From an uncultured Gemmatimonadales bacterium (GTDB taxonomy: Bacteria; Gemmatimonadota; Gemmatimonadetes; Longimicrobiales; Gaopeijiaceae): DNA of 64,000 nucleotides. Below, piece by piece: positions 180 to 61,159 of the stretch (its first letter is position 1; every line of letters begins with the position of its first letter). The DNA lies in contig CAVVTW010000005.1 in the NCBI GenBank assembly GCA_963751255.1, positions 102,189-166,188 on the forward strand. Reading direction: 5' to 3'. A model generated the notes under the pieces. The model was not told where the DNA came from. It saw only the letters and a program-made list of their open reading frames with translations, and searched no databases. A program made the position numbers and the translations under genes.

Positions 180-1018
180 TTGATCGGCCGTGGCCCTTTC
201 CTTTTGCAGAGCGCGGACATCAACACGCTCTACGACAACGCCCACCGACTCGGGGATCGGCTCAGCACCCTGCCCGAGCTTCAGGACCTGACCAGCGACC
301 TCCTCGTGGCCAACCCCGAGGTGAAGGTGGACCTGGACCGGGCCGCCTCCCTCGGGGTGACGGCGGCCCAGATCGAAAGCGCTCTCTACGACGCCTACGG
401 ATCTCGACAGGTCTACACGATCTATACCCCAACGACGAATACCAGGTGATCATGGAGCTCCTGGCCGTCGCGGTGTTCGTGATCTACATCGTGCTGGGGA
501 TCCTCTACGAGAGCTTCATCCACCCCTTGACCATCCTTTCGGGTCTCCCCTTCGCGGCTTTCGGGGCCCTTCTCACCCTTCTGGTCTTCCACGTGGACCT
601 GGGGGTCTATGCCTTCGTGGGGCTGATCAAGCTGGTGGGCCTGGTGAAGAAGCACGCCATCACGATGATCGATTTCGCCCTGGACGCCGAGCGCCGGCGC
701 GGCCTCCCTCCGGCCCAGGCCATCGAAGAGGCTTGCAGCATCCGCTTCCGGCCTATCATGATGACCACGATGTCGGCGCTGATGGCCACTTTGCCCATCG
801 CCATCGGTCTGGGTGCCGGAGGCGAATCCCGCCGCCCCCTGGGGGTGGCGGTCGTGGGGGGACTCGCGTTCTCTTCGCTCGTGACCCTCTACGTAACCCC
901 CGTTGTCTACACCTACCTGGACACCTGGCAGGGTAAGGTCCGCGCCCACTTCCGGCGGAGTCCCGAGGAAGCAGCCACTCGTGCGCAGGAGTTGGGAGCC
1001 TCCCCAGAGGCGACCTGA
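180..1018 (+). pseudogene. Remnant of an RND (AcrB/MdtB/MdtC-type) efflux permease. Only the C-terminal quarter is present, with one frameshift and a ~100-codon internal deletion.
   Basis: ORF 180-449 gives ...LSTLPELQDLTSDLLVANPEVKVDLDRAASLGVTAAQIESALYDAYGSRQVYTIYTP. A 1-nt loss near 429-431 is needed to read PNDEYQVIMEL. That runs straight into LAVAVFVIYIVLGILYESFIHPLTILSGLP (ORF 446-1018), which in intact pumps lies ~100 aa further on. No N-terminal ~750 aa is present. Confidence 0.75.
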
Positions 1019-1067
1019 CCCGTGGAGCGCGATCGGCTCTCACAACCGAAGGGAGAGGAGAGAATCC

Positions 1068-1553
1068 ATGGACGGGGCGAAGAGCATCGAGCTGTTGAAC
1101 AGCGGCGTGGCCGACGAGCTGCAGGCCGTGCACCAGTACATGTATTGGCATTTTCATCTGGACGACCAGGGCTTCGGGCCCCTGGCGGCCATGTTCAGGC
1201 GGATCGCTATCGTGGAGATGGGCCACGTGGAGATCCTCGCGGAGCGGATCCTCTTCCTCAAGGGTGAGGTGGAGATGGTGGCGGCCGGGCCGGTGGAGAA
1301 GATCACCGAACCCGAGGAGATCGTCGCAAGGGCGGCAAAGATGGAAGACGACGCCGTGGGCACCTATAACCGGGCTGCCGTCCAGTGTGGACAGAACGCC
1401 GACGCGGCCACCAAGCAGGTCTTCGAGGCCCTGGTCAACGACGAGGAAAGCCACTTCGACGAGTTCGACAGGCAGCTCGACAACATCAAACGCTTCGGAC
1501 CGAGCTACCTGGCCCTCCAGTCCTTCAACACCAGTGGGGCGGCGGGCGAGTAG
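1068..1553 (+). CDS. bfr: Bacterioferritin
   Basis: 161 aa beginning MDGAKSIELLNSGVADELQAVHQYMYWHF. Di-iron ligands and the heme Met are in the expected contexts (ADEL, VEMGH, KMEDDA, NDEESH). RBS GGGAGAGGAG lies 6 nt upstream of ATG 1068. The longer 903 start in the ORF track is upstream read-through. Confidence 0.9.
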   Translation: MDGAKSIELLNSGVADELQAVHQYMYWHFHLDDQGFGPLAAMFRRIAIVEMGHVEILAERILFLKGEVEMVAAGPVEKITEPEEIVARAAKMEDDAVGTYNRAAVQCGQNADAATKQVFEALVNDEESHFDEFDRQLDNIKRFGPSYLALQSFNTSGAAGE

Positions 1554-1699
1554 GCCGGAAACAGGCAGGTAGGGACACAATCGACGTCGGGGTTCCGGGG
1601 GGCCGGCGGCCGTTGGCCTGGGCTCCACCCTGGCCACCCTGCTCCCGGCCGGTCCGGGCGCGCCAGACGGCCCATTCCGGCAACCCTCGGACGTCCCTC

Positions 1700-2209
1700 T
1701 CCGGCAACCCCATCCTCCCGGCTGGTACGATCTCTTCTTCTCGACCAACGACATCCAGAGCGACGAGGAGATCGGCGGCATCGGCGTGGCCCGGGCCCGC
1801 ACCGCCGGCGGTCCGTTCAAGGACTTCATGGGAAAGCCGCTCATCGGGACCTTCCACAACGGGGCCCGGCCCATCGACCCCTTCGTGTTCCGGGATACCG
1901 ACGACACCTCCTACATGGCCCACGGCGGGTGGGGCCACTGCAGCACCGCCCGGCTGAACGACGACTCTACCGAATTCGTCCCCTTCGACGGCGGCGCCAC
2001 GTTCCGGGGGATCATCCCGGAGGGGCACGTAGAGCGCTCCTTCATGCTGTTGACGGACGGGAGGTACTACCATGTGGTCGGTGGGCGGCGGGACGGGGCT
2101 GAACTACGCGGTGGCCTCCGCCGTGCCGACCCCGCCCGCGGGCCCGTTCAGGCGCGTGGGCAAGATCCTCGAGCAGAACCCCGACGTGGCGACCGGGGCC
2201 GGCCATCAT
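1700..2209 (+). pseudogene. GH43-family glycoside hydrolase remnant (internal deletion, frameshifts, 3' truncation)
   Basis: GNPILPG (1703-1720) shifts frame into WYDLFFSTNDIQSDEEIGGIGVARARTAGGPFKDFMGKPLIGTFHNGARPIDPFVFRD...GGWGHC...LNDD. The ~90 aa normally found between the NPILPGWY motif and the (Y)FFxxNDIQSD motif are missing. A second shift near 2068-2075 gives MWSVGGGTGLNYAVASA...GPFRRVGKILEQNPDVATGAGHH. The gene then stops at the IS junction. Confidence 0.7.
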
Positions 2210-6194: not shown

Positions 6195-6355
6195 CGTGCC
6201 TCAAGGTAGGCCTGCCCTCCCGGCGATGGCCAGCCCCGCGACTCCGGCGCGAGAAGGTGCACGATCGGCCCCGGAGCCGTATTCTGTCCTCCGTTCGATT
6301 TCTGGACCCGGGGGTCAGGCTCTCAGCCCCCGGGGAGGCGTGGAAGGAGGATCCC

Positions 6356-7030
6356 ATGAAGCGACGCCACCCAAGGACATTCTGGCCAATTCCCGTGATC
6401 CTGCTCCTCGGACTGGGGTCGCTTCTGCAGGCTTGTGCGGAGCAGAGCTCCGGCGCAGCCGCCTCGGCCGGGGACGCCGACGGAGCCGACGTGCCGGAAA
6501 CGGCTCAGGAGACCCCTGCGGGGACCGTCGATGGAGCCTCCGCGGCCGCCGGCGAGAACGGGCACGTCGTGAGCCCCGCCGGGGCCGTCGACGCCAATGC
6601 CGTCCTGGCGGCGGGACTCGCCGAAGCCGACCGCACGAAGCGCCTCGTGTTCCTCCACTCGGGAGCCTCCTGGTGAAGTTGGTGTCGCCGGCTGGAGGCC
6701 TGGCTCGTGCGGGACGACATCGCGCCCATCTTCTCCAAGGATTTCGTGGACGTGAAGATCGACGTGGAGGCGATGGAGGGGGGAAAGGAGCTGATGTCGC
6801 GCTACAACGGCGGCTACAGCGGACTGCCCTGGCTCGCCATCCTGCGACCGCCCGACGGAACGGTGGTGATCACGTCGGACGACCCCGAGAAGGGGAACAT
6901 CGGCTCCCCCCAGGCCGACTGGGAGATCGAGCACTGGAACCGAATGATGCGGGCGGCGGCCCAGCGCATCACGGAGGAGGAGATCGAGTACATGGGGGCC
7001 ACCTGGGCGGAGGACCGCAAGGCGCCCTGA
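6356..7030 (+). CDS. Thioredoxin-fold lipoprotein with in-frame TGA (6674-6676) at the first Cys position of CxxC. Either a candidate selenoprotein or a nonsense pseudogene.
   Basis: ORFs 6257-6676 and 6707-7030 are in the same frame. Read-through gives ...KRLVFLHSGASW[TGA]SWCRRLEAWLVRDDIAPIFSKDFVDVKIDV..., where relatives read ASWCGWC. The lipobox is LLQAC. RBS GGAAGGAGG lies before ATG 6356. Confidence 0.6.
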
Positions 7031-28398: not shown

Positions 28399-29175
28399 TT
28401 AACCTGATTGTCCCTCCAGAGGCCGGGTCCCGCGGTGTTCCCACCGTGGGGGCCCGGCCCTCGGTGGCTCTTCTTTGCGTCCCGGCCGTCCGTTTCCGGT
28501 CAAGGCCCGCCCTTCCTCCTTCTCGAGTAGGCCATCCCCATCGGCAAGGGGGAGGAATGCCGCATCCTCCCGACTCCGGACATCCAGCTTCCGGAGCACG
28601 TGGTGAACGTGGTTCTTCACGGTGCCGAGACTGATCGAGAGGTGTTTGGCGATCTCTCGATTGGTGAGGTTCCGCTTCAGCAGACGCAGGATCTCCTCCT
28701 CGCGGCGCGTGAGCTGGTGGACGCGGGCGGCGTCCCCGACCTTTCCGGCGGGGCGGTCGATCAAGTGGTGGAGGCGCGCCAACAGGTGGCCGGCGACCTC
28801 CGGCTCCAGGATGGAGTGTCCTCGGGCGAGGGCCCGAATCCTCTCCACCAACTCTTCCGTCGTCGCTTCCCGGACGAGGTAGCCCCCGGCTCCGGCTTCC
28901 AGGTACTCCAGGACGACGCCAACCGATGGGGGTAGACCCTCCACGAGGACGCGGGCCGCACCCTCCCGGCAGCGAGCGTGGCGGGCCAATCTGAGGGCTC
29001 CTTCCTCTCGAAGGCCCTGACTGACTACGAGCACATCCACCTCTCCGGAGAGGGCCATCCCCGCCTCCACGGTCGTGCCGGTGCCCGCGACCTGAATGTC
29101 CTGGCGCCCCTCCAGCACCGTAGCCACCGCGTCGCCGTTGAGGCCATCCTCGGAGATGATGGCAACCTGGATCAT
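28399..29175 (-). CDS. LuxR/NarL-family DNA-binding regulator with a degenerate (probably non-phosphorylatable) receiver domain
   Basis: Starts MIQVAIISEDG. The HTH is LTRREEEILRLLKRNLTNREIAKHLSISLGTVKNHVHHVLRKL. The receiver has Ser where the phospho-Asp is expected (VDVLVVSQGL). The track's longer N-terminus is unlikely. Confidence 0.75.
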   Translation of the reverse strand: MIQVAIISEDGLNGDAVATVLEGRQDIQVAGTGTTVEAGMALSGEVDVLVVSQGLREEGALRLARHARCREGAARVLVEGLPPSVGVVLEYLEAGAGGYLVREATTEELVERIRALARGHSILEPEVAGHLLARLHHLIDRPAGKVGDAARVHQLTRREEEILRLLKRNLTNREIAKHLSISLGTVKNHVHHVLRKLDVRSREDAAFLPLADGDGLLEKEEGRALTGNGRPGRKEEPPRAGPPRWEHRGTRPLEGQSG

Positions 29176-31923: not shown

Positions 31924-34900
31924 GTGCTAGGGCGCTTCGCCACGCGGTACTCGGTCCCCGTGGTCTTCATCAGCATCGCTCTCTGCCTGGCTGGCATCTA
32001 CGCTGCCGTCAGCCTCGCCTCCTCGGTCTTCCCCCAGACGGATTTCCCCCGCGTGGTCATCCTCGTGGACAACGGGGTGATGCCGGCAGACGAGATGATG
32101 GCCACCATCACACGCCCCATCGAAGAGGCCATGCACGATATCCGGGGCGTTACCACCGTCAAATCCGCCACCGGCCGGGGCTCGGCAGAGATCAACGTGT
32201 TCTTCACGTGGGACGTGGACATGATCCAGTCCGAGCTCTACGTCCTGAGCCGTCTCTCCCAGATCCGAAGCACCCTCCCCACCACGGCCGAAACCACGGT
32301 CTACCGGCTCACCTTCGCGGCCTTTCCGGTCCTCGGCGTGAGTCTGACCAGCGATACCCGGGACATCACCGAGCTCTGGGAAACGGCTCGCTACAACCTG
32401 AAGCTGCGCTTCCTGCGCATCCCGGGGGTGGCCCGGGTGGATCTGGTAGGGGGCCGGGCGCCGGAGTATCACATCGTCGTGGACCCCCTTCTGCTCAGCA
32501 ACGCCCACCTGAGCCTCGCAGAGGTGGTGGATGCCCTGAACGCCAACAACCTGGTGGCTTCGGCTGGCATGCTGCAGGAGAACCACACGCTTTACCTGAC
32601 GGTGGTGGACGGAAGGGTCCACTCAATCCGTGACATCGAGGACTTCATCGTCACCGCCCCCGGCGGGCACCCCATTCGGGTGGGGGACTTCGCGAAGGTG
32701 GAGCGTGGTCCCGAACCCGTGTTCAACGTGGTCACCGCCGATGGGCACGATGCGGTGCTCCTGAACGTTCGCAGCCAACCGGACGGCAGCACGCTCCACA
32801 TCGCCAGGGATCTGCGCCAGCAGATCGCCGAGCTGCGTCAGGAGCTGCCGCCGGACATGAAGTTGGCATTCTTCTACGACCAATCGGAGATCGTTCGATC
32901 CTCCGTGCACAGCGTGTGGGAGGCCATTCTCTTCGGGCTCTTCCTCTCGGTGCTGATCCTCTACTTCTTCCTGAAGAGCTGGGGCACGACCCTCGTTGCG
33001 ACCATGGTCATTCCCGTGACCGTGCTCATCACTCTCGTGTCCATGGAGCTCACGGGGCTGACCTTCAACCTCATGACCCTGGGGGGGATCGCTGCCGCCA
33101 TCGGGCTCGTCATCGATGACGCTATCGTTGTGGTGGAGGCCATCCACACCCGGCTCATGGCGGGGATGAGTCGGGTTCATGCCGTCCAGACCGGGATCAG
33201 CGAGATCTTCCGGCCCCTGGTGGGCTCGACCCTCACGCCGGTGGTGGTGTTCATCCCCCTGGCCTTCCTCAGCGGCATCACGGGCGTCTTCTTCCGGGCC
33301 CTGGCCATGACCATGGTGGTCTCCCTCCTGACCTCCCTGGTCCTCGCCGTCACGCTGACCCCCTCTCTGGCCGCCTGGCTGATCCGGCCCCGAAAGGGCA
33401 CCCCTCTCGGCGAGCAGAGGGGTGGAGCCCACGCCGGAGCCGCCGCCGAGCAGGGAGGCCCCTTGCTCCAGCAGCTCATCGACCTCTATGAGCGGGCGGT
33501 ACGACCCGCCCTTCGTCACCCGTGGCGTGTAATGGGTGCCTGCGCCCTGATCCTCGTGCTTGGGCGTGGTGGTCTACGGCCGCCTGGAGAGCGATTTCCT
33601 CCCCCCCATGGACGAGGGGGGGTTCGTCATCGACTACTTCACCCCTCCTGGAACGAGCCTGGAGGAAACCAACCGCCAGCTTCTCCAGGCCGAGGCCATT
33701 CTCCGCACGGTGCCCGAAGTGGAGAGCTACTCTCGACGAACGGGCGCCCGCCTGGCCCTGGCCATTGCCGAACCCAACACGGGTGATTTCCTTGTCAAGC
33801 TTCGCCGGGACCGCCGCAGGTCCACCGACGAGGTGATCTCCGAGCTGCGCCGACGATTCAACACCGGGCTGCCGGGGCTGGAGTGGGAGTTCCCAGGGAT
33901 CCTGGGGGACCTGATCGGCGACCTCATGTGGGCCCCCTCGCCCGTCGAGGTGAAGCTCTACTCCACCGATCAGCGATGGCTGGAGGAAAAGGCTCCCGAG
34001 GTGGCCTCCCAGCTGGAGCTGATCCCTGGGGTCGTGGACGTCTTCGACGGCCTCGTCTACACCGGCCCCACCGTGAGTCTGCGAACGCGAACGGCGGATG
34101 CCCGACGCTTCGGGCTCACCGCCGATGACATCGCCAATGCCGCCAACACGGCCATGCTGGGGCAGACCGCCTCGTCGGTGCTGGAAGGCGACCGGGTCGT
34201 GGACATCCGAGTGCGGGTGGATTCGACGAAAGTCCTGACGCTCCGCCAGATCCGGGAGCTCCCGATCCGCACGCCGGAAGGTACGCTGGTCAAGCTGTCA
34301 CAGGTGGTGAACGTGGTGGAGGAGCCGGGCCAGCTGGAGATTCGCAGGGAGGACGCACGCCAGGACGTGGCCGTAACCGCCCGTCTGGAAGGGCGGGACA
34401 TGGGGAGCGCCATGGCCGAGATCCGCCAGACCCTCGGCCAGGATGCATCCATCCCGGCGGGAACCATCGAGTACGGCGGCCTCTACCAGCAGCAGCAGGA
34501 GTCCTTCCGAAACCTGGTGTTCGTGCTCCTCATGGCCATTACTCTGGTCTTTACCGTTCTCCTCCTTGAGTTCGGCTCGTTCTGGGAGGCCATTGCCATC
34601 ATTTTCGGAGCCGTGCTCGCCATGTTCGGCACGGTCCTGGCGCTGTGGCTCACCGGCACCTCCTTCAATGTGGTCTCCTTCCTGGGAGCCATCATCGGTG
34701 TCGGCATCGTGGCGAAGAACGGCATCCTGATGCTGGACTACGTGCAGCACCTGAGGGACGAGGGCCTGGACCTGGCCGAAGCCCTCGTGCGCTCGGGCCG
34801 GCGGCGGCTCCGGCCCGTCCTCATGACCTCCCTCGCGGCGGCGCTGGGGATGCTCCCCCTGGCCTACGGAATCGGGTCGGGCGCGGACATGCTTCGGCCG

Positions 34901-35011
34901 CTGGCCATCGCCGTTATCGGCGCGTTGTGCATCTCGGTGCTCCTTTCCCTGGTGGCCACCCCCACGCTCTACTACATCCTGGTCCACCCGCGGGAGAGCA
35001 AGGCAGCCTGA
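31924..35011 (+). CDS. Efflux RND permease (HAE-type, LVIDDAIVVVE motif), one frameshift
   Basis: ORFs 31924-33786 and 33560-35011 are the two halves. One extra base near 33559 (...ACALILV|LGVVVYGRLESDFLPPMDEGGF...) separates them. It starts with GTG 1 nt after the MFP stop. Confidence 0.85.
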
Positions 35012-38455: not shown

Positions 38456-39262
38456 TCAGGATCGACCTCGTCCTCCCCCACGCTGCCGCGCCGCAATATC
38501 GACCAACCTGCGCAGCTCCGCAAAAGGGTCCTCGGCATCGTCCACCTGGAGCCGTAGGACAACGTCGTTGTTGAGCCAGACGCCGCCGCCCTTCTTGACG
38601 ATGAGCATCGCCGCCGACTGCATGCCGCGTGTGTCACCCCCTGCGGCCTGGCCCGCCTCCAGGGCTGCCAGCAGCCGGTAGGAGAGATGCCCCTCCGTCT
38701 CTTCGAAGGCTCTTACCATTCCTTCGACCACGGCGGGCCCCGCCAGGATGTTCCCCTGTGCCGAACAGTACTGGCCGATCCGGTGACCGGCCCATTCGCT
38801 GGCGGCCGGTCCCGTGTGGGTTGCCACGTTTCCCTGCGCGTCCATGACCGAGAACTGGCGTCCGGCCCTGGGCCACCGCTCGCCAAGGGGATCGGGGTCT
38901 TCCGCGAGGAGCGAATCCACCACCTCCTGGGGTGAGAGACCCGCCTTCAAGAGGCCGAGTCCCTTCGGCCCGTAGCTCACGTCCACCCAGGCCTGCGTGG
39001 CCACCACGCCCACGTCCGCCTCGCCCCAGATGACCCCGTTTCCCACCGAGAACACCCGGGACTGGACCGCGACGCCCACCTCCCCGGTGGCTGGATCGAA
39101 GCCCACGATGCTGAACGTCGCGACGGGCGACCAGCCCTGAGGAGAGGGCAAGGGGGCTTCCGGACCTTCCTGTGCCTCGGCCGCGACCGGCCCCCAGACG
39201 ATTGGGCAGCAGGTCAGAGCCGCGAGGAGGAGGCGAAGCGGTGGAACGGGACATCGGTTCAT
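38456..39262 (-). CDS. DUF1028-family (Ntn-hydrolase-like) secreted protein
   Basis: Signal peptide is MNRCPVPPLRLLLAALT. The hallmark is TFSIVGFDPATGEVGVAVQSRVFSVG. RBS GGGGAG lies before ATG 39262. Confidence 0.75.
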   Translation of the reverse strand: MNRCPVPPLRLLLAALTCCPIVWGPVAAEAQEGPEAPLPSPQGWSPVATFSIVGFDPATGEVGVAVQSRVFSVGNGVIWGEADVGVVATQAWVDVSYGPKGLGLLKAGLSPQEVVDSLLAEDPDPLGERWPRAGRQFSVMDAQGNVATHTGPAASEWAGHRIGQYCSAQGNILAGPAVVEGMVRAFEETEGHLSYRLLAALEAGQAAGGDTRGMQSAAMLIVKKGGGVWLNNDVVLRLQVDDAEDPFAELRRLVDIAARQRGGGRGRS

Positions 39263-39531
39263 CGTGTGGCTCCCCTGGGGCGATCTCATCTCTCGAGTCT
39301 GCGGGCAGGAACGAAGCTCGGGTCCGCGCAACACACGGTAGGATGCGCGGGATGGGTGTTCGCCGCCAGTCTCACCCGCCCCCCTCTCTCCCCCCGCGTT
39401 CCGAAGCAGACCACCACCTCATAGCCTCTCCTGGCGTCAGTCCCGGTGGCCAGATTGACCCGCGCCCCGGGGTCCCTCCCATCTTCCTCGGAGAATGCGG
39501 TTCATTCACCCCAAGTCGGGAATCCACGTCC

Positions 39532-41994
39532 ATGAAGAGCTCTCCCCCGGATCGCCGGATTCCCGTCGACCTCCAGCCTCCCTTCCTCCCGGCCCTCCTC
39601 CTTCTCTTCTTGGGAAGCGGGTGCGCGGCCCTGATCTACGAGATCATCTGGTTCCAGATGCTGCAGCTCGTCATCGGGGCATCGGGAATTTCCCTGGGGG
39701 TCCTCCTGGGCACGTTCATGGGGGGTATGTTCCTGGGGAGCCTCCTGCTTCCCCGTTTCGTGCCTCCGTCGAGACACCCGCTCCGGGTCTACAGCGTCAT
39801 CGAAGGTGGCATCGGGGTCTTCGGCGCGCTCCTGTTGGTGGCCGTTCCGGGGGTGAGCGGACTCTACGGATCCCTTGTTCCCCCCGGTCTCCTGAGCGTG
39901 CTGGTGCGTACCCTCCTCTGCGCCCTCCTCCTGCTCCCTCCCACGATCCTCATGGGGGCAACGCTTCCGGCGGTGGCACGGTACGTGGAGGCCACGCCGC
40001 GAGGCGTCTCGTGGATGGGCTTCTTCTACGGCGGCAACATCGCCGGGGCCGTCATCGGCTGCCTCCTGGCCGGCTATTACCTCCTCCGGTCCTACGACAT
40101 CCCCACGGCGACGGGCGTGGCGGTGGCCTTGAACGCCGCGGTGGCCCTCGGGGCACTGGCCCTCTCCTGGGCATCGTCGAGCCGGGCCCCCGCGCCGAAG
40201 CCGAGAGCGGAGGACGGCCCCATCCTCACTCCCGGCCGAAGGGGGGTCTACGTCGCCATCGGGCTCTCCGGGCTCACCGCCCTGGGGGCCGAGGTGGTCT
40301 GGACTCGCCTCATGTCGCTCCTGTTGGGGGCCACGACCTACACCTTCTCGATCATTCTTGCGGTCTTCCTGGCAGCGCTGGGGGTGGGCAGCGCCGTGGG
40401 CTCCTACCTCGCCCGGACCATGGCTAATCCCCGCGCGGCCCTGGGAATCTGCCAGGCCCTGGTGGCGTTGGGAGTGGCCTGGACCGCCTACATGATCACT
40501 TCGGCCCTGCCCTACTGGCCCATCAACCCCTCCATCACCTCGAGCCCCTGGTTTCTCTTTCAGATCGACCTCTTCAGGGCGGTCCTCGCGCTCCTGCCGG
40601 CTCCTCTGTTCTGGGGGGCCAGCTTCCCCCTGGCGGTGGCGGCCGCCGCGGAAAGGGGACGGGATTCGGGACGGCTCATGGCTGGGGTCTACGCCGCCAA
40701 TACGGTGGGAGCCATCGTCGGCGCGCTGGGATTCAGCCTGGTGGCCATTCCCCGGCTTGGCACGCAGGACTCGCAGCGGCTCCTCATGATCCTGACCGTG
40801 GTCTCGGCGGCGCTGCTCCTGGCGCCCGGCATGGTGAAGGGGAGGGCGGGAACGCCCTCGGCCGCCCAGGGAGGCAGGGGGCACCCGGCCCGGTGGGCCT
40901 GGGCAGCGGGCGCCGTGGCAATAGTGGGATTCCTCGTCCTGCAGCTGGAGCCCGTGCCACCTGTCCTGGTGGCTTACGGCCGCTACGCGCCCACGTACTA
41001 CCCGCCTCACGCTCTCTACGTGGGGGAGGGAATGAACTCCTCCATCGCGGTTACGGAGCTGGCCAACGGGGACCGGAACATCCACGTGGGTGGGAAGATC
41101 GTTGCCTCCACCGAGCCCCAGGACATGCGACTGCAGAGGATGCTGGGCCACATGACCGCTCTCCTGGCGGACGAGCCCAGGACGGTCCTGGTAGTGGGAT
41201 TCGGAGCCGGCGTCACGGCCGGCACTTTCGTCACCCATCCCGGGATCGAGCGCATCGTCATCGTCGAGATCGAGCCCCTGGTGACGGATGTGGCCTCCCG
41301 GTACTTCGCCGACGTCAATTACGATGTGTTGAAGGACCCCAGGGTAGAGCTGATCCTCGACGATGCCCGACACTTCCTCCTCACCACCGACGAGACCTTC
41401 GACCTCATCACCGCCGATCCGATTCATCCCTGGATGAAGGGCGCCGCCGCCCTCTACACCCAGGAGTATTTCGAGCTGGCCGCCCGGCATCTGAATCCAG
41501 GAGGGGTCATCACCCAGTGGGTTCCTCTCTACGAGAGCACCACCGAAGTGGTGAAGAGCGAGATGGCGACCTTCTTCCAAGTCTTCCCCCGGGGGTTGGT
41601 CTGGGGCAACACCAAGGACGGCCACGGCTACGACCTCGTCCTGGCCGCGCCGGACGGCGCCCCCACCATCGACGTGGACGCACTCACGGCTCGTCTCCGC
41701 CGGCCCGAGTACGCTTGGGTGCGGCAGTCCTTGGATGAGGTGGGCTTCTCCAGTGCCCTCGAGCTGCTCTCGACCTACGCGGGGCGGGCCCAGGATCTGA
41801 GGGCCTGGTTGGGACGAAGCCAGATCAACCGGGACCGGGACCTCCGGCTCATGTATCTCGCCGGCCTCAGCCTGAACCGCTACGAGGAATCGTCCATCTA
41901 CCGGGAAATCCTGGATCAGGCCCGCTTCCCTTCGGACCTCTTCACTGGCTCTCCCCAGTCGCTCCTCATGCTCCAGATGATGCTCGGCTCATAG
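39532..41994 (+). CDS. Fused polytopic-membrane / spermidine-synthase-like (aminopropyltransferase fold) protein
   Basis: 820 aa and intact. The N-terminal half has many TM helices. The C-half carries VLVVGFGAGVTAG (SAM-type GxGxG), FDLITADPIHPW and a TPR-like tail. Confidence 0.75.
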   Translation: MKSSPPDRRIPVDLQPPFLPALLLLFLGSGCAALIYEIIWFQMLQLVIGASGISLGVLLGTFMGGMFLGSLLLPRFVPPSRHPLRVYSVIEGGIGVFGALLLVAVPGVSGLYGSLVPPGLLSVLVRTLLCALLLLPPTILMGATLPAVARYVEATPRGVSWMGFFYGGNIAGAVIGCLLAGYYLLRSYDIPTATGVAVALNAAVALGALALSWASSSRAPAPKPRAEDGPILTPGRRGVYVAIGLSGLTALGAEVVWTRLMSLLLGATTYTFSIILAVFLAALGVGSAVGSYLARTMANPRAALGICQALVALGVAWTAYMITSALPYWPINPSITSSPWFLFQIDLFRAVLALLPAPLFWGASFPLAVAAAAERGRDSGRLMAGVYAANTVGAIVGALGFSLVAIPRLGTQDSQRLLMILTVVSAALLLAPGMVKGRAGTPSAAQGGRGHPARWAWAAGAVAIVGFLVLQLEPVPPVLVAYGRYAPTYYPPHALYVGEGMNSSIAVTELANGDRNIHVGGKIVASTEPQDMRLQRMLGHMTALLADEPRTVLVVGFGAGVTAGTFVTHPGIERIVIVEIEPLVTDVASRYFADVNYDVLKDPRVELILDDARHFLLTTDETFDLITADPIHPWMKGAAALYTQEYFELAARHLNPGGVITQWVPLYESTTEVVKSEMATFFQVFPRGLVWGNTKDGHGYDLVLAAPDGAPTIDVDALTARLRRPEYAWVRQSLDEVGFSSALELLSTYAGRAQDLRAWLGRSQINRDRDLRLMYLAGLSLNRYEESSIYREILDQARFPSDLFTGSPQSLLMLQMMLGS

Positions 41995-45523: not shown

Positions 45524-46778
45524 ACCGATCATGGCCAAGACGAAACGGAGAACGTCCGGTGCCCGGTGGGGATGGCTCCTCACCACCCTCGCCCTGGGCG
45601 TCGGGCTGGCCCTGGCCTCCTGGGCCAACTACCGAAGCGCCCGGGCCGCCGTTTCCACCCTGGACGTTGGGCAGGCCAGAGTCTTCGAGGGAATCGTGAT
45701 GAGTGCCTTCCGGTCGGCAGGGCCGGGAGGTCAGCTTCCGGACCTGGACAGCCTCGTCGCGGCCCACTCCGACACCGGCCTCCGCTTCGTGGGCGTGTTC
45801 GCGCCGGATGAGGGACTGACCCTTCTCGGCGGGACTCCCCTGTCCAACCCCATGGAGGTCCCACGCCGGGGCGGGAGTCAGGATCTGATCCACGTGGGAG
45901 ACAGGATGCGGGTGTTTCTTCCCTCGCCGCCCACCCGGAGCCGAAGCCGCATGGAGCGGGACAGTCATCTCGTGGTGGAGTTCGAGCCCGTGGTGGCTGG
46001 CCAACTCGTGAACCGGGCTTTCCGATCTCTGATCCTCGGAGTCCTGGCTGCAGCCCTCCTCATGCTCATGGCGCTCCTCTTCTGGCGCGCCTCCGTGCGT
46101 CGTGAGGCCGAGGCTCGAGTGATGGAGGAGCAACGGAGGCTCAGCACCCTCGGCGAGTTATCCGCGGTTCTGGCCCACGAGATTCGCAACCCCCTGGCGA
46201 GCCTGAAAGGTCACGCCCAGCTTCTGGCGGAACGGACGCCCGAGAACGCGCCTGAACGACGCAAGGTGGACCGGATCGTTGCCGAGGCACACCGCCTGGA
46301 GGCCCTCACCACCGATCTGCTGGACTTCGTCCGGACCGGTCCCCTCGAGGTGGAGGAGGTGGACCTCGAGGAGCTCTTCCGGGCGGTGGCGACGGACGTG
46401 GGAGGCGGGGAGGTGGAAGTGGACACCTCCCGGGCCCCACCGGCGTGGCCCCTGGATGAGCGGCGCATGCATCAGGTCCTCCAGAACCTCCTCCGGAACG
46501 CGGTGGAAGCTTCCCCCGCGGGAACTCCCATTCAGGTCGAGGTGGTCCGAGACGGGCCATCCCTCTCCGTATCGTTCCTGGACCGGGGAGAAGGGATCCC
46601 GGAGGAAAGCCTGGATCGGATCTTCGAGCCCTTCTACACCACCCGAACGAGGGGAACCGGCCTGGGCCTCGCCGTGGCGCGCCGGATCGTCGAGCTCCAC
46701 GGGGGAACGCTGACGGCCCGGAATCGGCCCGAGGGCGGAGCCGAGTTTCGCATCACCTTACCGGGAAAGGCGGGCTGA
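45516..46778 (+). CDS. Two-component sensor histidine kinase
   Basis: Two TM segments flank a periplasmic loop. The H-box is [16 protein letters not shown]. The N/G boxes are [18 protein letters not shown] and GTGLGLAV. Confidence 0.85.
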
Positions 46779-46779
46779 C

Positions 46780-48115
46780 ATGGCCTCCATCCTCATCGTG
46801 GACGACGAGGAGGGAATCCGGGAGTACCTGGCAGAGGCGCTGGCGGGAGAAGAGGACACGGTCGCCGAGGCGGCCGACGGGGTGGAGGCGCTGCGTCACC
46901 TGGGGGAACACTCCTTCGAGGTGCATGATCACCGATCTCCGTATGCCCGGCGCCCTGGACGGCATCGATCTCCTGCGAAAAGCCCAGGCCGAAAGCCCCG
47001 AGATGGAGGTCATCGTGCTCACCGCCCACGGCTCGGTGGACACGGCGGTGGAGGCCATGAAGCTGGGGGCTTTCGACTATCTCCAGAAGCCCCTGGGCAG
47101 CCCCGCCGAGCTCCGCCTCCTCGTGGGGCGGGCCCTGGAGCACCGAAGGCTCCTCGCCCTGAAGGACCAGAGCCGCCGGGAGGTGGAGGCCACTCCCCCT
47201 CTCACCTTCGGGGACCCGGTCATGGTCCCGGTCGTGCGGGCACTCGAAAAGGTGGCCCCCACCAACGCCACGGTCCTCCTCCTGGGCGAGAGCGGCACGG
47301 GCAAGGAAGTGGCCGCCCGGACCATCCACCAGCGCAGCACGCGCAGGGAGGGGCCGTTCGTCCCCGTGAACTGTGCCGCCATCTCCGAGACCCTGATGGA
47401 GAGCGAGATCTTCGGGCACGAAGCCGGGGCCTTCACGGGGGCGACCGGCTCCCGCCGAGGCCGGTTGGAGCTGGCCGACGGTGGCACGCTCTTTCTGGAC
47501 GAGATCGGGGAGTTGAAACTGGAGCTCCAATCGAAGCTCCTTCGCGTTCTCCAGGAGCGGAGATTCGAGCGCGTGGGAGGCACCCGGACCATTCAGGTCG
47601 ATGTCCGATGGATCGCGGCCAGCAACCGCAACCTGCAAGCCATGGTCCAGGAGGGTTCGTTCAGGGAGGATCTCTACCACCGCCTGGCCGTCTTCCCCGT
47701 GACCCTCCCACCCCTCAGGGAGCGCCAGGAGGACCTCCTTCCCCTGGCCGAGAGCCTCCTGGCCCGCATCTGCCGGGACCTGGGGCGCCCCCCCCTTCGC
47801 CTCGACGACTCGGTGGGTGCCCTGCTCCGGCGGGCACCCTGGCCAGGGAACGTCCGGGAGCTGGCCAATGCCCTCGAACGGGCCACAATCCTGAGCGAGC
47901 GGGATCGACTCAGTGCCGAGGATCTTTCGTCTTCTCTGGGTGGGGCCGTGGGCGACCGGCCCGGCCACCGACCCCGGACCATGGAGGAAGTCGAGAAGGA
48001 CGCCATCCGGGAAGCCCTGGAGGCCGCGGGCGGGCACCGGAAGAAGGCCGCCGAGGCCCTGGGCATCGGCGAACGCACGCTCTACGACAAGCTGAAACAG
48101 TACGGAATCAAGTGA
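46780..48115 (+). CDS. NtrC-family sigma54-dependent response regulator, one frameshift inside the receiver domain
   Basis: [17 protein letters not shown]...HSFEV, then an extra base at ~46924, then MITDLRMPG... (ORF 46925-48115). Motifs are [23 protein letters not shown] and the C-terminal [24 protein letters not shown]. The 471-aa ORF 46780-48195 is wrong-frame read-through. Confidence 0.85.
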
Positions 48116-57525: not shown

Positions 57526-57557
57526 TGCGAAGTCTCCCTCGTGCGAAGTCTCCCTCG
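57526..57557. repeat. Perfect 16-nt tandem duplication
   Basis: TGCGAAGTCTCCCTCG appears twice, at 57526-57541 and 57542-57557. Confidence 0.85.
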
Positions 57558-57669
57558 CCTTTCGGCCGAGGAGGCCGCTCCCGTATGTTGGCCTCCGGAT
57601 GGTGACCCAGGGTCGACGAGCGGAAATCAGCCGCTCTTCTCCCCTCACGACTTGGACGGGAAGGTCAAA

Positions 57670-60600
57670 ATGATGCACCGAAGCCCGGCACTCGTGCCGA
57701 CTCCCCAGTGGCTGCTTCTTGTCGCCTTGTTCGCGGCCTCCGGTCCCATCCCGGCGGCGGCCCAGAATAGCCAGCTGGCCCGGGACCCGACACTCTTCGT
57801 GGTAGGGTACGCCCACCTGGACACGGAGTGGCGCTGGGACTACGAGACCACCATCCGCGAGTACCTGCCCAAGACCATCCGGGAGAACTTCGCCCTTTTC
57901 GAGAAGTACCCGCACTACGTCTTCAACTTCAGCGGCGCGAACCGTTACCGGATGATCGAGGAGTACTATCCGAAGGACTACGAGAAGCTGAAGGCGTACG
58001 TGGCGGAAGGCCGCTGGTTCCCCTCCGGCTCTTCCATGGAAGAGAACGACGTCAACGCTCCTTCGGCAGAATCGATCTTCCGACAGATCCTGTACGGCAC
58101 GCAGTATTTCAGGCGGGAGTTCGGAAGGACCAGCGCCGAGTACATGCTTCCGGACTGCTTCGGCTTCCCCGCCTCCCTGCCCAGCATCCTGGCACATGCG
58201 GGCATCAAAGGGTTCTCGACGCAGAAGCTGTCCTCGAGCTGGCAGCCCGCCGCGCGGGTGGGCGGCCCTGATTCCCCGCAACGCACCCCCGAAGGGCATC
58301 CCCTTCAATGTCGGCATCTGGGAAGGGCCGGACGGCATCGAGCATCATCGCCGCCCTCAACCCCGGCAGCTACTCCGGCTCCGTCACGTATGACCTGACC
58401 AGGACACCACCGGCGCCGCCACCGCCGGACTCCACCAACCCGAGGCGACGGCCCCGAGAGCTCGTCGACTGGCCCGGACGCGTGCAGTGGAACGGCGAGT
58501 CCAGCGGTCTGTTCGCCGACTACATGTACTACGGGACCGGGGACACGGGAGGCTCCCCGACGGAAGCATCGGTGAAGCTCATGGAGGCCATCGTCACCCG
58601 GAGCCGTACCGTCCTCCCGCCACCATTCGGAAGAAGGTGGAGCGACGAGACCCCCGCTCCTGCGGCGGAGGCCCTGGTCGGGCGACGGCCCCTTGCACGT
58701 CGTCCCGCGCCACCGCCGAGCAGATGTTCCTGGCCATCGGCCCGGAGGAGACCTCCCGGCTACCGCGCTACAAGGGCGACCTGGAGCTGATCAACCACTC
58801 GGCGGGCTCCATCACCTCCCAGGCCTACATGAAGCGGTGGAATCGGCAGAACGAGGTTCTGGCCGACGATGCCGAGCGGGCCTCGGTTCTCGCCGAATGG
58901 CTGGGCGGGGCCCCCTACCCCATCGCGCGCCTGAACTCGGCCTGGACCCTGGTGATGGGGAGCCAGTTCCACGACATCATTCCGGGAACCAGCATTCCCA
59001 AAGCCTACGAGTACGCGTGGAACGACGAGTTGCTGGCCCTGAACCAGTTCTCCGGGATCCTCACCCACGCTGTGGGCGCCGTGGCTTCCACGCTGGACAC
59101 GAACGTCCGGGGTAGCGCCATCGTGGTCTACAATCCCCTGAACATCCGGCGTGAGGACGTCGTGGAGGCGAGAGTGTCCTTCCCCGGCGGCACGCCCAGG
59201 GCGGTGCGAGTGACGGGACCCGACAGCCAGCCGGTGCCGGCTCAGCTCACTGCGGACGGTACGGTGCTCTTCCTGGCCACGGTGCCGTCGGTGGGTTTCA
59301 CCGTCTACGACGTTGCTCCCGCCGACGCGCCTACTCCGGCCGAAACGGCCATGGCGGTCACCGAGTCCTCCCTGGAGAATGGCCGGTACCGCGTGCGCCT
59401 GGACGAGAACGGCGACATTGCTAGCATCTACGACAAGGACCTGGAGAAAGAGGTGCTCTCGGGCCCCGCACGGTTGGAGATCAAGACCGACAATCCCCGC
59501 AACTGGCCGGCATGGAACATGGACTGGGAGGACCAGGAACGGGCCCCCAGGGCGTACGTGGAGGGGCCGGCCCGGGTGAGGATCACCGAGCGCGGCCCCG
59601 CCCGGGTGGCGCTCGAAGTCGAGCGGGAAACGGAAGGCTCACGCTTCATCCAGACCATTCGCCTCGCTGCCGGTGACGCCGGAAACCGGATCGAGTTCGC
59701 CAACGTCATCGACTGGGCGACCCGTGAGGCGCACCTGAAGGCCGTCTTCCCCTTCACGGCCTCCAACTCCTCTGCGACGTACAACCAGGACGTCGGCACC
59801 ATCGAGCGGGGCAATGACGACGAGCGCCAGTTCGAGGTCGCCTCACACCAATGGTTCGATCTCACGGACCGGAGTGGGAGCTTCGGCGTGACCGTCCTCT
59901 CCGATACCAAGCTCGGATCGGACAAGCCCGACGACCACACCCTCCGCCTCACGCTCATGCGCACGCCGGGGACCCAGGGCGGATACGAGGACCAGGGCAC
60001 ACAGGACATCGGCCGCCACGAGCTCGTGTACGGTCTCGCGCCCCACGCATCCGGCTGGAGGGAGGCCAGGACTGACTGGCAGGCCCAGCGGCTGGATCAG
60101 CCCCTGGTCGCCTTCCAGAGCTCGAGCCACGCCGGAACGCTGGGCAGGGAGCTCTCGCTTCTCCGCGTGTCCAGCGATCGAGTGCGGGTTCTGGCCCTCA
60201 AGAGGGCGGAGGAGAGCGACGAGTACGTGATCCGCCTCGTGGAGCTCGCCGGGCAGCCGGCGTCCGACGTGCGGGTGGCGTTTGCCGCACCCGTCACGGC
60301 GGCCCGGGAGGTCAACGGATCGGAGATGCCCGTGGGGCCGGCCGAGATCCGGAACGGCGAGCTGGTGACCGACCTCGGGCCCTATCAGCCCAGGACCTTC
60401 GCCCTTCGTCTCGCGCCGGCGCCGGCCCAGGCCGAGGTGCATCGGGTGCGAGCCGTCACCCTGGCCTACAACCAGGCCGTAGCGAGCCCTGACGGTACCG
60501 TGGCCGCCGGACGGTTTGACGGTTCGGGCCGGAGCCTGCCGGCAGAGATGCTCCCGGACCAGATCCGGTTTGGCGGGGTCCCCTTCATGGTAGCGCCCGG

Positions 60601-61159
60601 AAGCCAGATGAACGCCGTGACCGCGCGAGGCCAAACCGTGGCCCTCCCCGCCGGCGACTGGAACCGCATCTACCTGCTGGCCGCCGCCGATGGCGACCAG
60701 ACGGCAGAGTTCGAGGTGGGTGGAACCTCCGTGGAACTGACGATTCAGGACTGGACCGGCTACATCGGTCAGTGGGACAATCGCACATGGACCACGAGAG
60801 AGGAGCCGGTGCCGCCGCGCCCCGACGCACCGGCCGGCGCGCCGCCCCGGGTGCGCACCGTGAGCGAAGCCACGGGGCTGATCCCAGGGTTCGTCAAACG
60901 GGCCCCGGTGGCCTGGTTCGCATCCCACCGTCACGGCACCGACGGCACGAACGAGCCGTACCAGTACTCGTACCTGTTCGCCTACGGCGTGGATGCCCCC
61001 GCCGGGGCGAGAACCCTGACGCTACCCGACAACGACCGGATCCGGATCCTGGCCGTCACCGTGGCGGACGAGCCTTCCCGGGTCGTGCCCGCCCACCCGC
61101 TCTACGACACGCTGGAGAGGGCCAAGGACGACTGGAGGTTTTTCCCCGAGGGGAGGTGA
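57670..61159 (+). CDS. GH38 alpha-mannosidase-like secreted protein, four frameshifts
   Basis: The signal peptide is followed by VVGYAHLDTEWRW. Extra bases occur near 58279, 58337, 58683 and 58705. It is split over ORFs 57541-58398, 58196-58393, 58308-58790, 58693-59115 and 58487-61159. The C-terminal 800 aa is continuous. Confidence 0.8.

Follow-up and report, generated by a model that had tools for sequence, protein, structure and literature searches.

Does the TGA codon at positions 6674-6676 of this 64-kb stretch of DNA, part of contig CAVVTW010000005.1 from an uncultured Gemmatimonadales bacterium, terminate a gene, or is it read as selenocysteine (Sec) in the active site of a thioredoxin (Trx)-fold lipoprotein? 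The whole stretch is referred to here as the window, all coordinates are positions within it, and loci numbered L### and proteins numbered P#### are sequences that were retrieved for comparison. An earlier reading of the sequence alone (the sequence-only reading) had interpreted the gene as encoding a candidate selenoprotein. That interpretation is supported by a clade of relatives carrying TGA at the same codon, by purifying selection, and by an invariant block downstream of the codon. On this comparative evidence, positions 6356-7030 are very probably one intact gene. Its product would be an exported, probably lipid-anchored oxidoreductase of about 22 kDa, of the Thioredoxin_7, DsbD-gamma or DsbH type, with Sec as the attacking residue in the motif W-U-S-W-C.

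An in-frame TGA shared by relatives

Translation from the ATG at 6356-6358 to the TGA at 7028-7030 gives a single frame of 224 codons, in which the TGA at 6674-6676 is the sole interruption. The open reading frames (ORFs) 6257-6676 and 6707-7030, which the sequence-only reading had placed in a common frame, are indeed parted by this codon alone. The read-through product contains LVFLHSGASW, the TGA codon and then SWCRRLEAWLVRDDIAPIF, and terminates at 7028-7030. All of the coordinates and sequence statements in the sequence-only reading were borne out when the window was re-read, and the features that it had described as intact were found, namely the ribosome-binding site (AAGGAGG), a lipoprotein-like leader (judged by eye) and a downstream domain (matched by Pfam).

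A protein search of a collection of 5.8 billion proteins recovered 57 relatives. The 30 closest are 53-73 % identical to the window protein, and those that are named come from Gemmatimonadales. All 30 of these full-length homologues have W-C-[GS]-W-C where the window has W-TGA-S-W-C, which confirms that the TGA falls on the first Cys of a CxxC motif.

Whether orthologues have Cys or TGA at this codon was examined in genomes and metagenomes. The genome scan covered one genome per species and used two patterns, one of which required Cys while the other did not fit the MMRAAAQRIT of the window; the genome from which the window derives was not among the matches. An orthologue in a Gemmatimonadota genome bin (L003, GenBank assembly JBDHGR01) is 67 % identical, has TGA at the same codon and shares nearly the same 45 nucleotides (nt) downstream. 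A metagenome collection was scanned with the pattern H..A.W-TGA-x-W-C-x-R-L-x-x-W, in which the TGA was fixed and third codon positions were free. There were 18 matches, and 17 of these are true relatives with a frame that is open through to the conserved ...AEDR end. Twelve of the 17 are single-domain lipoproteins like that in the window and are referred to as clade A. The remaining five (L082, L083, L090, L092 and L094) are two-domain forms of approximately 320 residues, with Cys (WCGWC) in the first Trx domain and TGA in the second. Two-domain relatives of the Cys type are found in Planctomycetota, Aminicenantes and other phyla.

A second protein search, with only the C-terminal ORF (6707-7027) as the query, recovered 41 further clusters (P0058-P0098). 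The members of 37 of these clusters are 90-107 residues long and start exactly at [MV]-R-[ED]-D, corresponding to the GTG located 11 codons past the UGA, a pattern left by gene callers that split the gene. The C-terminal-half clusters are mostly unnamed or listed as 'hypothetical protein', none has a precomputed Pfam match, and the N-terminal halves have been called as separate small ORFs. DNA sequences were retrieved for four of the clusters (L106-L109), and TGA was present in all four. L106 is contig_2228 of ENA ERZ25039603 and L107 is contig_17864 of ENA ERZ25039500.

In total, TGA was found at this codon in 17 other single-domain loci (including L003) and in the five two-domain loci. Hence, the window is not the sole carrier, and because at least 21 independently assembled relatives have TGA at the same codon, its position is more than chance. 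The codon is TGC or TGT in the sister clades, and the genome bins with a Cys-type gene include L001, L002 and L105. Neighbour-joining placed the window gene at the base of clade A, with P0013 and P0014 as the closest Cys forms. The tree has TGA forms in at least two other positions, and the Sec and Cys forms are intermixed in it.

The locus most similar in its surroundings is L109, which is 92 % identical over the C-terminal half and has the gene order seen in the window (LemA, a 232-aa gene, the selenoprotein gene and a 571-aa gene). Beyond L109, no synteny with the window was detected among the loci compared, and the gene stands alone without conserved neighbours. A large membrane protein with a spermidine-synthase-like domain, encoded elsewhere in the window (39172-41994, + strand), is 76 % identical to the product of positions 4937-7291 in L088, a contig that also bears a clade-A gene. 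This suggests related organisms in which the gene order has been rearranged.

Evidence for translation past the UGA and an invariant downstream block

The sequence evidence indicates that translation continues in the frame after the TGA, which is under purifying selection. For eight complete clade-A genes, the median ratio of nonsynonymous to synonymous substitution rates (dN/dS) was 0.18 in the region starting 16 codons after the TGA, with dS values from 0.6 to >2. In the two-domain forms, synonymous changes are found directly after the TGA (GGA/GGG, CGC/AGA/CGG and CTG/CTC/CTT) and the peptide G-W-C-x-R-L-E-A-W is kept. The window gene and the genes in L088 and L095 have TGA as their genuine stop codon, and UGA is therefore still a stop codon in this lineage and has not been reassigned genome-wide.

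The DNA immediately downstream of the TGA is unusually uniform in clade A. The mean pairwise nucleotide difference was 0.022 over the 42 nt that begin with the TGA, compared to 0.29 just upstream of the TGA and 0.20-0.35 downstream of the 42-nt block, and it was 0.244 for the same 42 nt in eight Cys-type orthologues. At codons +1 to +13, 10 of 11 degenerate codons are invariant in the TGA clade versus 1 of 22 in the flanks (Fisher p = 1.3e-6), and none of the nine degenerate codons is invariant in the Cys orthologues. The block also retains AGT and TGT, codons that are rare for a genome rich in G+C at third codon positions (GC3-rich). Cys110 is encoded by TGT, the rarer of the two Cys codons in this genome, in every clade member (17 of 18) except L108, which has TGC.

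This invariance was not imposed by the search pattern, and the strictly invariant part was narrowed to 24 nt after extra loci had been added. The 24-nt core CGCCGGCUGGAGGCCUGGCUCGUG is present in the window and 17 loci (18 sequences) and in no Cys-type locus, and it is conserved despite near-saturated synonymous divergence elsewhere. If the core is a SECIS, such rigidity would imply that SelB recognition and the R-R-L-E-A-W-L-V peptide are very tightly co-constrained. We infer that the block is a SelB-binding selenocysteine insertion sequence (SECIS), and that it pairs as proposed below.

The candidate hairpin, GCCGGCU-GGA-RGCC(U)GGC, consists of the pairs G6687-C6704, C6688-G6703, C6689-G6702, G6690-C6700, G6691-C6699, C6692-G6698 and U6693-G6697, with a bulged U6701 and a GGA loop at 6694-6696. 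The consensus for bacterial SECIS (bSECIS) elements is a loop of 3-9 nt starting with G and then G or U, a stem of at least 4 bp, a spacing of 16-37 nt and a folding energy of -7.5 kcal/mol or lower (PMC13188914). The hairpin agrees with this consensus in all four respects, with seven pairs, the GGA loop starting 17 nt past the UGA, and -8.2 kcal/mol.

The sequence-only reading had also drawn a hairpin here. The segments that it used, GCCGG (6687-6691), CUGGC (6700-6704), GGUGUCG (6681-6687) and CGACAUC (6715-6721), are at the positions it gave. The 5' arm of its upper stem (6687-6692) stands, but the register and the 8-nt loop do not; the best hairpin is the shifted one described above. Its lower stem (GGUGUC/GACAUC) is not upheld, as L108 has C in place of U12 and the base opposite G6687 is A rather than C in most of the clade. 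The 57-nt minimum-energy fold of the window sequence (stem 6681-6721, GCCUGG loop) was rejected as the conserved element. L003 and most clade members break its G14-C42 and G24-C31 pairs, and L107 and L108 break G18-C37. In three of the five two-domain forms, another helix, GGAGGCC-UGGAU-GGCYUCC, is found 24 nt past the UGA and has been kept with differing sequences and registers.

According to the Sec interpretation, the UGA at 6674-6676 would be recoded co-translationally. The hairpin, within the 24-nt core, would recruit SelB and Sec-tRNA(Sec) to a ribosome paused at the UGA, with translation then proceeding as far as the genuine stop codon (7028-7030). Once the protein had been exported, its U-x-x-C pair would alternate between the selenol/thiol and selenenylsulfide states, reducing or shuffling disulfides in the envelope. 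The features of the locus are listed in Table 1.

Table 1. Features of the candidate selenoprotein gene in the window
Feature	Position	Strand	Basis
Shine-Dalgarno-like AAGGAGG	6344-6350	+	Read from the sequence; 5 nt 5' of the start codon
Complete gene for a predicted 224-residue selenoprotein precursor (Thioredoxin_7-domain lipoprotein, Sec at residue 107, own stop TGA 7028-7030)	6356-7030	+	Translation; Pfam PF13899; alignment with 30 Cys homologues; orthologues sharing the in-frame TGA
Putative signal peptide, residues 1-26; probable lipobox L-Q-A-C, in which Cys27 (6434-6436) would carry the lipid	6356-6436	+	Judged by eye
Thioredoxin_7 domain, residues 83-165	6602-6850	+	Pfam match; AlphaFold2 model of Cys homologue P0013; nearest solved folds
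UGA probably read as Sec, residue 107, first position of the U-S-W-C redox motif	6674-6676	+	Alignment with invariant Cys; TGA in relatives; dN/dS downstream
TGT, Cys110, resolving Cys of UxxC	6683-6685	+	Codon comparison across the clade
Invariant 24-nt core, CGCCGGCUGGAGGCCUGGCUCGUG, proposed SECIS core within the coding sequence	6686-6709	+	Exact match (R at one position) in the window and 17 loci
Candidate SECIS hairpin	6687-6704	+	RNAfold, -8.2 kcal/mol; structure inferred

Selenocysteine machinery and alternative explanations

A number of results weigh against Sec insertion at this codon, and they concern either the RNA element or the decoding machinery. Every Cys orthologue also has some hairpin that passes the generic bSECIS criteria in our own criteria scan. 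Because the scan also fires on the Cys orthologues, these criteria were dropped as a discriminator, and the case for the RNA element rests on clade-specific invariance and not on fold prediction. The hairpin is identical in the 18 sequences except for A or G at the loop-closing position, leaving the pairing without covariation support. The folding energy relative to shuffled sequences was not significant for this G+C content (z -0.04 to -1.95), and RNAalifold did not find a structure common to the single-domain and two-domain Sec forms. As to the machinery, Rfam and ARAGORN searches of the window yielded no matches, no tRNA and no tRNA-Sec, and ARAGORN likewise found nothing in 21 related loci. 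Among the approximately 40 window ORFs scanned with Pfam there was no selA, selB or selD, and tblastn searches of the window and related loci using E. coli SelD and SelA queries found no matches. No report on Sec use by Gemmatimonadota was found in the literature searched. The selA, selB, selC and selD genes are presumably present in the source genome.

Indirect support for Sec decoding comes from a second UxxC candidate in L084, a 2.9-kb contig, where it adjoins a clade-A gene. Positions 579-1772 (+ strand) of this contig encode a candidate lipoprotein whose C-terminal domain is AhpC-TSA/Redoxin/ResA-like. Its gene has a TGA in frame (1455-1457) at the first Cys of F-W-G-D-W-U-P-P-C. A hairpin, ACGAGC-GGUC-GCUCGU, is found 31 nt past this UGA (-7.9 kcal/mol, z -3.2). 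A scan of the window for other TGA codons with coding on both sides found only ordinary gene ends or antisense frames.

That the Sec machinery was not found in the window or in related loci would also fit a genome that does not have it, in which a near-cognate or suppressor tRNA inserts Trp, Cys, Gly or Arg at the UGA and read-through is stimulated by the downstream structure. This is unlikely, as the position is that of the nucleophilic Cys of CxxC, the classic site of Sec/Cys exchange, and Trp, Gly or Arg there would abolish the active site. Moreover, the downstream element has the distance and the loop type of a bacterial SECIS, and a related contig, L084, carries the second UxxC gene with its GGUC-loop hairpin. 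We know of no bacterial mechanism for efficient non-Sec read-through of a UGA conserved at a catalytic Cys. The gene could alternatively be truly split, with translation stopping at the UGA and restarting at GTG 6707 with the aid of GGAGG (6694-6698), giving a signal-peptide fragment and a 107-residue protein. The invariant block, which covers both the GGAGG and the GTG, would then be a restart signal. The GGAGG is 8 nt ahead of the GTG, and gene callers choose the GTG start in 37 clusters. However, the restarted product would have no signal peptide, no strand beta-1 and none of the UxxC motif, and the stretch between the TGA and the GTG is in frame, encodes the S/G-W-C-x-R-L-E-A-W of the family and shows synonymous changes in the two-domain forms. 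The Cys-type loci L099 and L103 have the same CTG-GAG...GTG/ATG codons, and as Cys-type genes encode R-L-E-x-W-[LM]-V using these codons, the appearance of a Shine-Dalgarno sequence plus a start is a by-product of the peptide. A split gene is accordingly very unlikely.

The remaining alternative is that the TGA is a pseudogene mutation or a sequencing or assembly error, so that the gene is either dead or truly has TGC and the match to the Cys position is a coincidence. A single substitution is sufficient to convert TGC to TGA, and the frameshift-type disruptions in the AcrB, GH38 and sigma-54 activator genes of the window favour this view and count against an intact Sec gene. However, the same TGA is seen in at least 21 relatives that come from many samples and were assembled independently, and about 37 further clusters are split. 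Neither the purifying selection on the downstream frame nor the invariant block that follows the codon in this clade would be expected, and we regard this explanation as extremely improbable. Sec insertion at codon 107 is the reading that we prefer.

The sequence-only reading had noted that the window holds disruptions of the indel type, and frameshift-type breaks were found in three genes. An AcrB-type RND transporter (31924-35011, + strand) is in two ORFs in different frames, 31924-33786 (Pfam positions 4-540) and 33566-35011 (positions 543-1020), which indicates a 1-nt indel near 33562; there is no obvious homopolymer at the junction. The GH38 alpha-mannosidase gene (57541-61159, + strand) is also broken. 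Its N-terminal ORF (57541-58398) reaches only position 149 of the 270 in the profile, and a different frame encodes the middle and C-terminal domains from about 58487/58724, indicating at least one frameshift and probably two. In the case of the sigma-54-dependent response regulator (46780-48115, + strand), the ORF begins at position 46 of the receiver-domain profile. The approximately 45 missing N-terminal residues would have to be encoded in a different frame, directly past the histidine kinase gene ending at 46778, and a frameshift is probable. An in-frame TAG had been cited as a nonsense substitution. The codon is present at 28933 (+ frame). It faces a minus-strand gene for a LuxR/GerE-type regulator (28399-29175), and for this reason may be an antisense-frame artefact and not a nonsense mutation in a genuine gene.

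The predicted protein and known selenoproteins

The N-terminus of the window protein, MKRRHPRTFWPIPVILLLGLGSLLQA followed by C, resembles a lipoprotein leader when judged by eye, and export as a lipoprotein appears likely. A charged n-region, a hydrophobic core and a Cys are all kept in relatives, in which the residues before the Cys vary (IPAC, IPGC, LPAC, LSAC and ILAC; LLQA-C in the window). The Q at lipobox position -2 in the window is atypical. A low-complexity linker of Ala, Gly and Asp separates the leader from the folded domain. With Cys substituted for the stop, the protein exceeded the cut-off of 27 bits for two Pfam families, scoring 40 bits (E 4.3e-10) with Thioredoxin_7 (PF13899) and 32.7 bits with Thioredox_DsbH (PF03190).

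The Cys homologue P0013 was modelled with AlphaFold2 (mean predicted local distance difference test score, pLDDT, 85.4, and >90 across most of the domain). The model has a Trx fold, with a strand at 72-78, the motif cysteines C82 and C85, a helix at 83-92 and two additional C-terminal helices. The first motif Cys lies at the N-terminal end of the helix after strand beta-1, which is the canonical thioredoxin arrangement. Both the alignment and the model indicate that the two-helix C-terminal extension, NIGSP...WEIEHWN...RITEEEI.YM..WAEDR, is conserved. Among solved structures, the family profile matches 3fk8 and 2kuc, which are Trx-like 'disulphide isomerases', and 7tkv, a DsbH-type domain, and the nearest neighbours of the P0013 model found using Foldseek were 3fk8, ERp18, DsbD-gamma and DsbH. 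The modelled fold is consistent with the window protein being an envelope disulfide reductase or isomerase with a Sec nucleophile.

The main immediate value of these findings is in correcting widespread mis-annotation and in flagging Sec decoding in this lineage. Dozens of public entries are split into two 'hypothetical' ORFs, and with the UGA read as Sec a complete redox enzyme is recovered. The list of bacterial selenoproteins would gain an exported, envelope-facing UxxC protein. The known picture of selenoprotein function is unchanged. The results also suggest that Sec is decoded in Gemmatimonadota and related sediment lineages, and they may provide a useful marker of selenium use in such habitats. 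It seems reasonably likely that the exported Thioredoxin_7 UxxC lipoproteins and their two-domain relatives constitute an abundant selenoprotein family that has not been catalogued, that a sediment-dwelling branch of the Gemmatimonadota decodes Sec, and that the SECIS in this branch is an unusually rigid 24-nt element, identical even though synonymous sites are near saturation. If this is true, the rigid element could be a simple probe for finding these organisms. The compact candidate SECIS (18-24 nt) and the close pairs of Sec and Cys genes would offer a clean system for studying SelB recognition outside the enterobacteria, and the benefit of Sec versus Cys in an oxidising compartment.

The SECIS of E. 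coli fdhF has a minimal upper stem-loop with a bulged U, located about 11 nt past the UGA. The window hairpin is likewise short, starts 10 nt past the UGA, includes a bulged U and a G-G opening a small loop, and lies inside the reading frame (compared in part with PMC13188914). It differs in its sequence, in having the bulge on the 3' side and in the loop of 3-5 nt, and its binding by SelB is putative.

With regard to the protein, the best neighbours in sequence and structure are the DsbD gamma domain, DsbH and the DsbD-like part of TsoB (NF045694), all of which are periplasmic Trx-like disulfide reductase domains with W-C-x-x-C. The window protein has neither the membrane domain nor the rhodanese domain of these proteins, and the motif in TsoB is UxxxxU. 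The similarity is at the level of the domain only, as the scores are far under the curated cut-offs (23.6 versus 805 for TsoB, 16.2 versus 190 for DsbH, NF043050, and 14.1 versus 330 for DsbD, NF001419). Four proteins were scanned against NCBIfam (that of the window, one from clade A, a two-domain form and the ResA-like protein of L084), and no model reached its cut-off for any of them.

A UxxC Thioredoxin_7 lipoprotein is in neither of the two prokaryotic selenoprotein catalogues that were compared (2022, PMC9312934; 2026, PMC13188914). PF13899 appears in both only as a PDZ-containing CxxU family (PMC13188914, PMC9312934). This Trx7/PDZ selenoprotein (NF041199), which came from the Global Ocean Sampling analysis, is alone among catalogued selenoproteins in sharing the Thioredoxin_7 domain with the window protein. 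However, its Sec is second in the motif (CxxU) and it has a PDZ domain, whereas the window protein is UxxC and has no PDZ domain detectable by Pfam, and an NCBIfam scan of the window protein gave no match to NF041199 at E <= 0.1. Catalogued bacterial selenoproteins that have both a Trx-fold UxxC motif and Cys homologues are well known and include thioredoxin (PF00085), the thiol:disulfide interchange protein (PF13098), DsbG-like proteins and redoxin (PF08534) (PMC13188914, PMC9312934). The window protein differs from these in its domain (PF13899/PF03190), its two-helix C-terminal extension, its lipoprotein leader and its distribution, which is centred on Gemmatimonadota. In other respects it resembles them. 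Sec would replace the first, nucleophilic Cys of CxxC, Cys orthologues are widespread, a hairpin is located in the coding sequence after the UGA, and the Sec and Cys forms are mixed in the tree.

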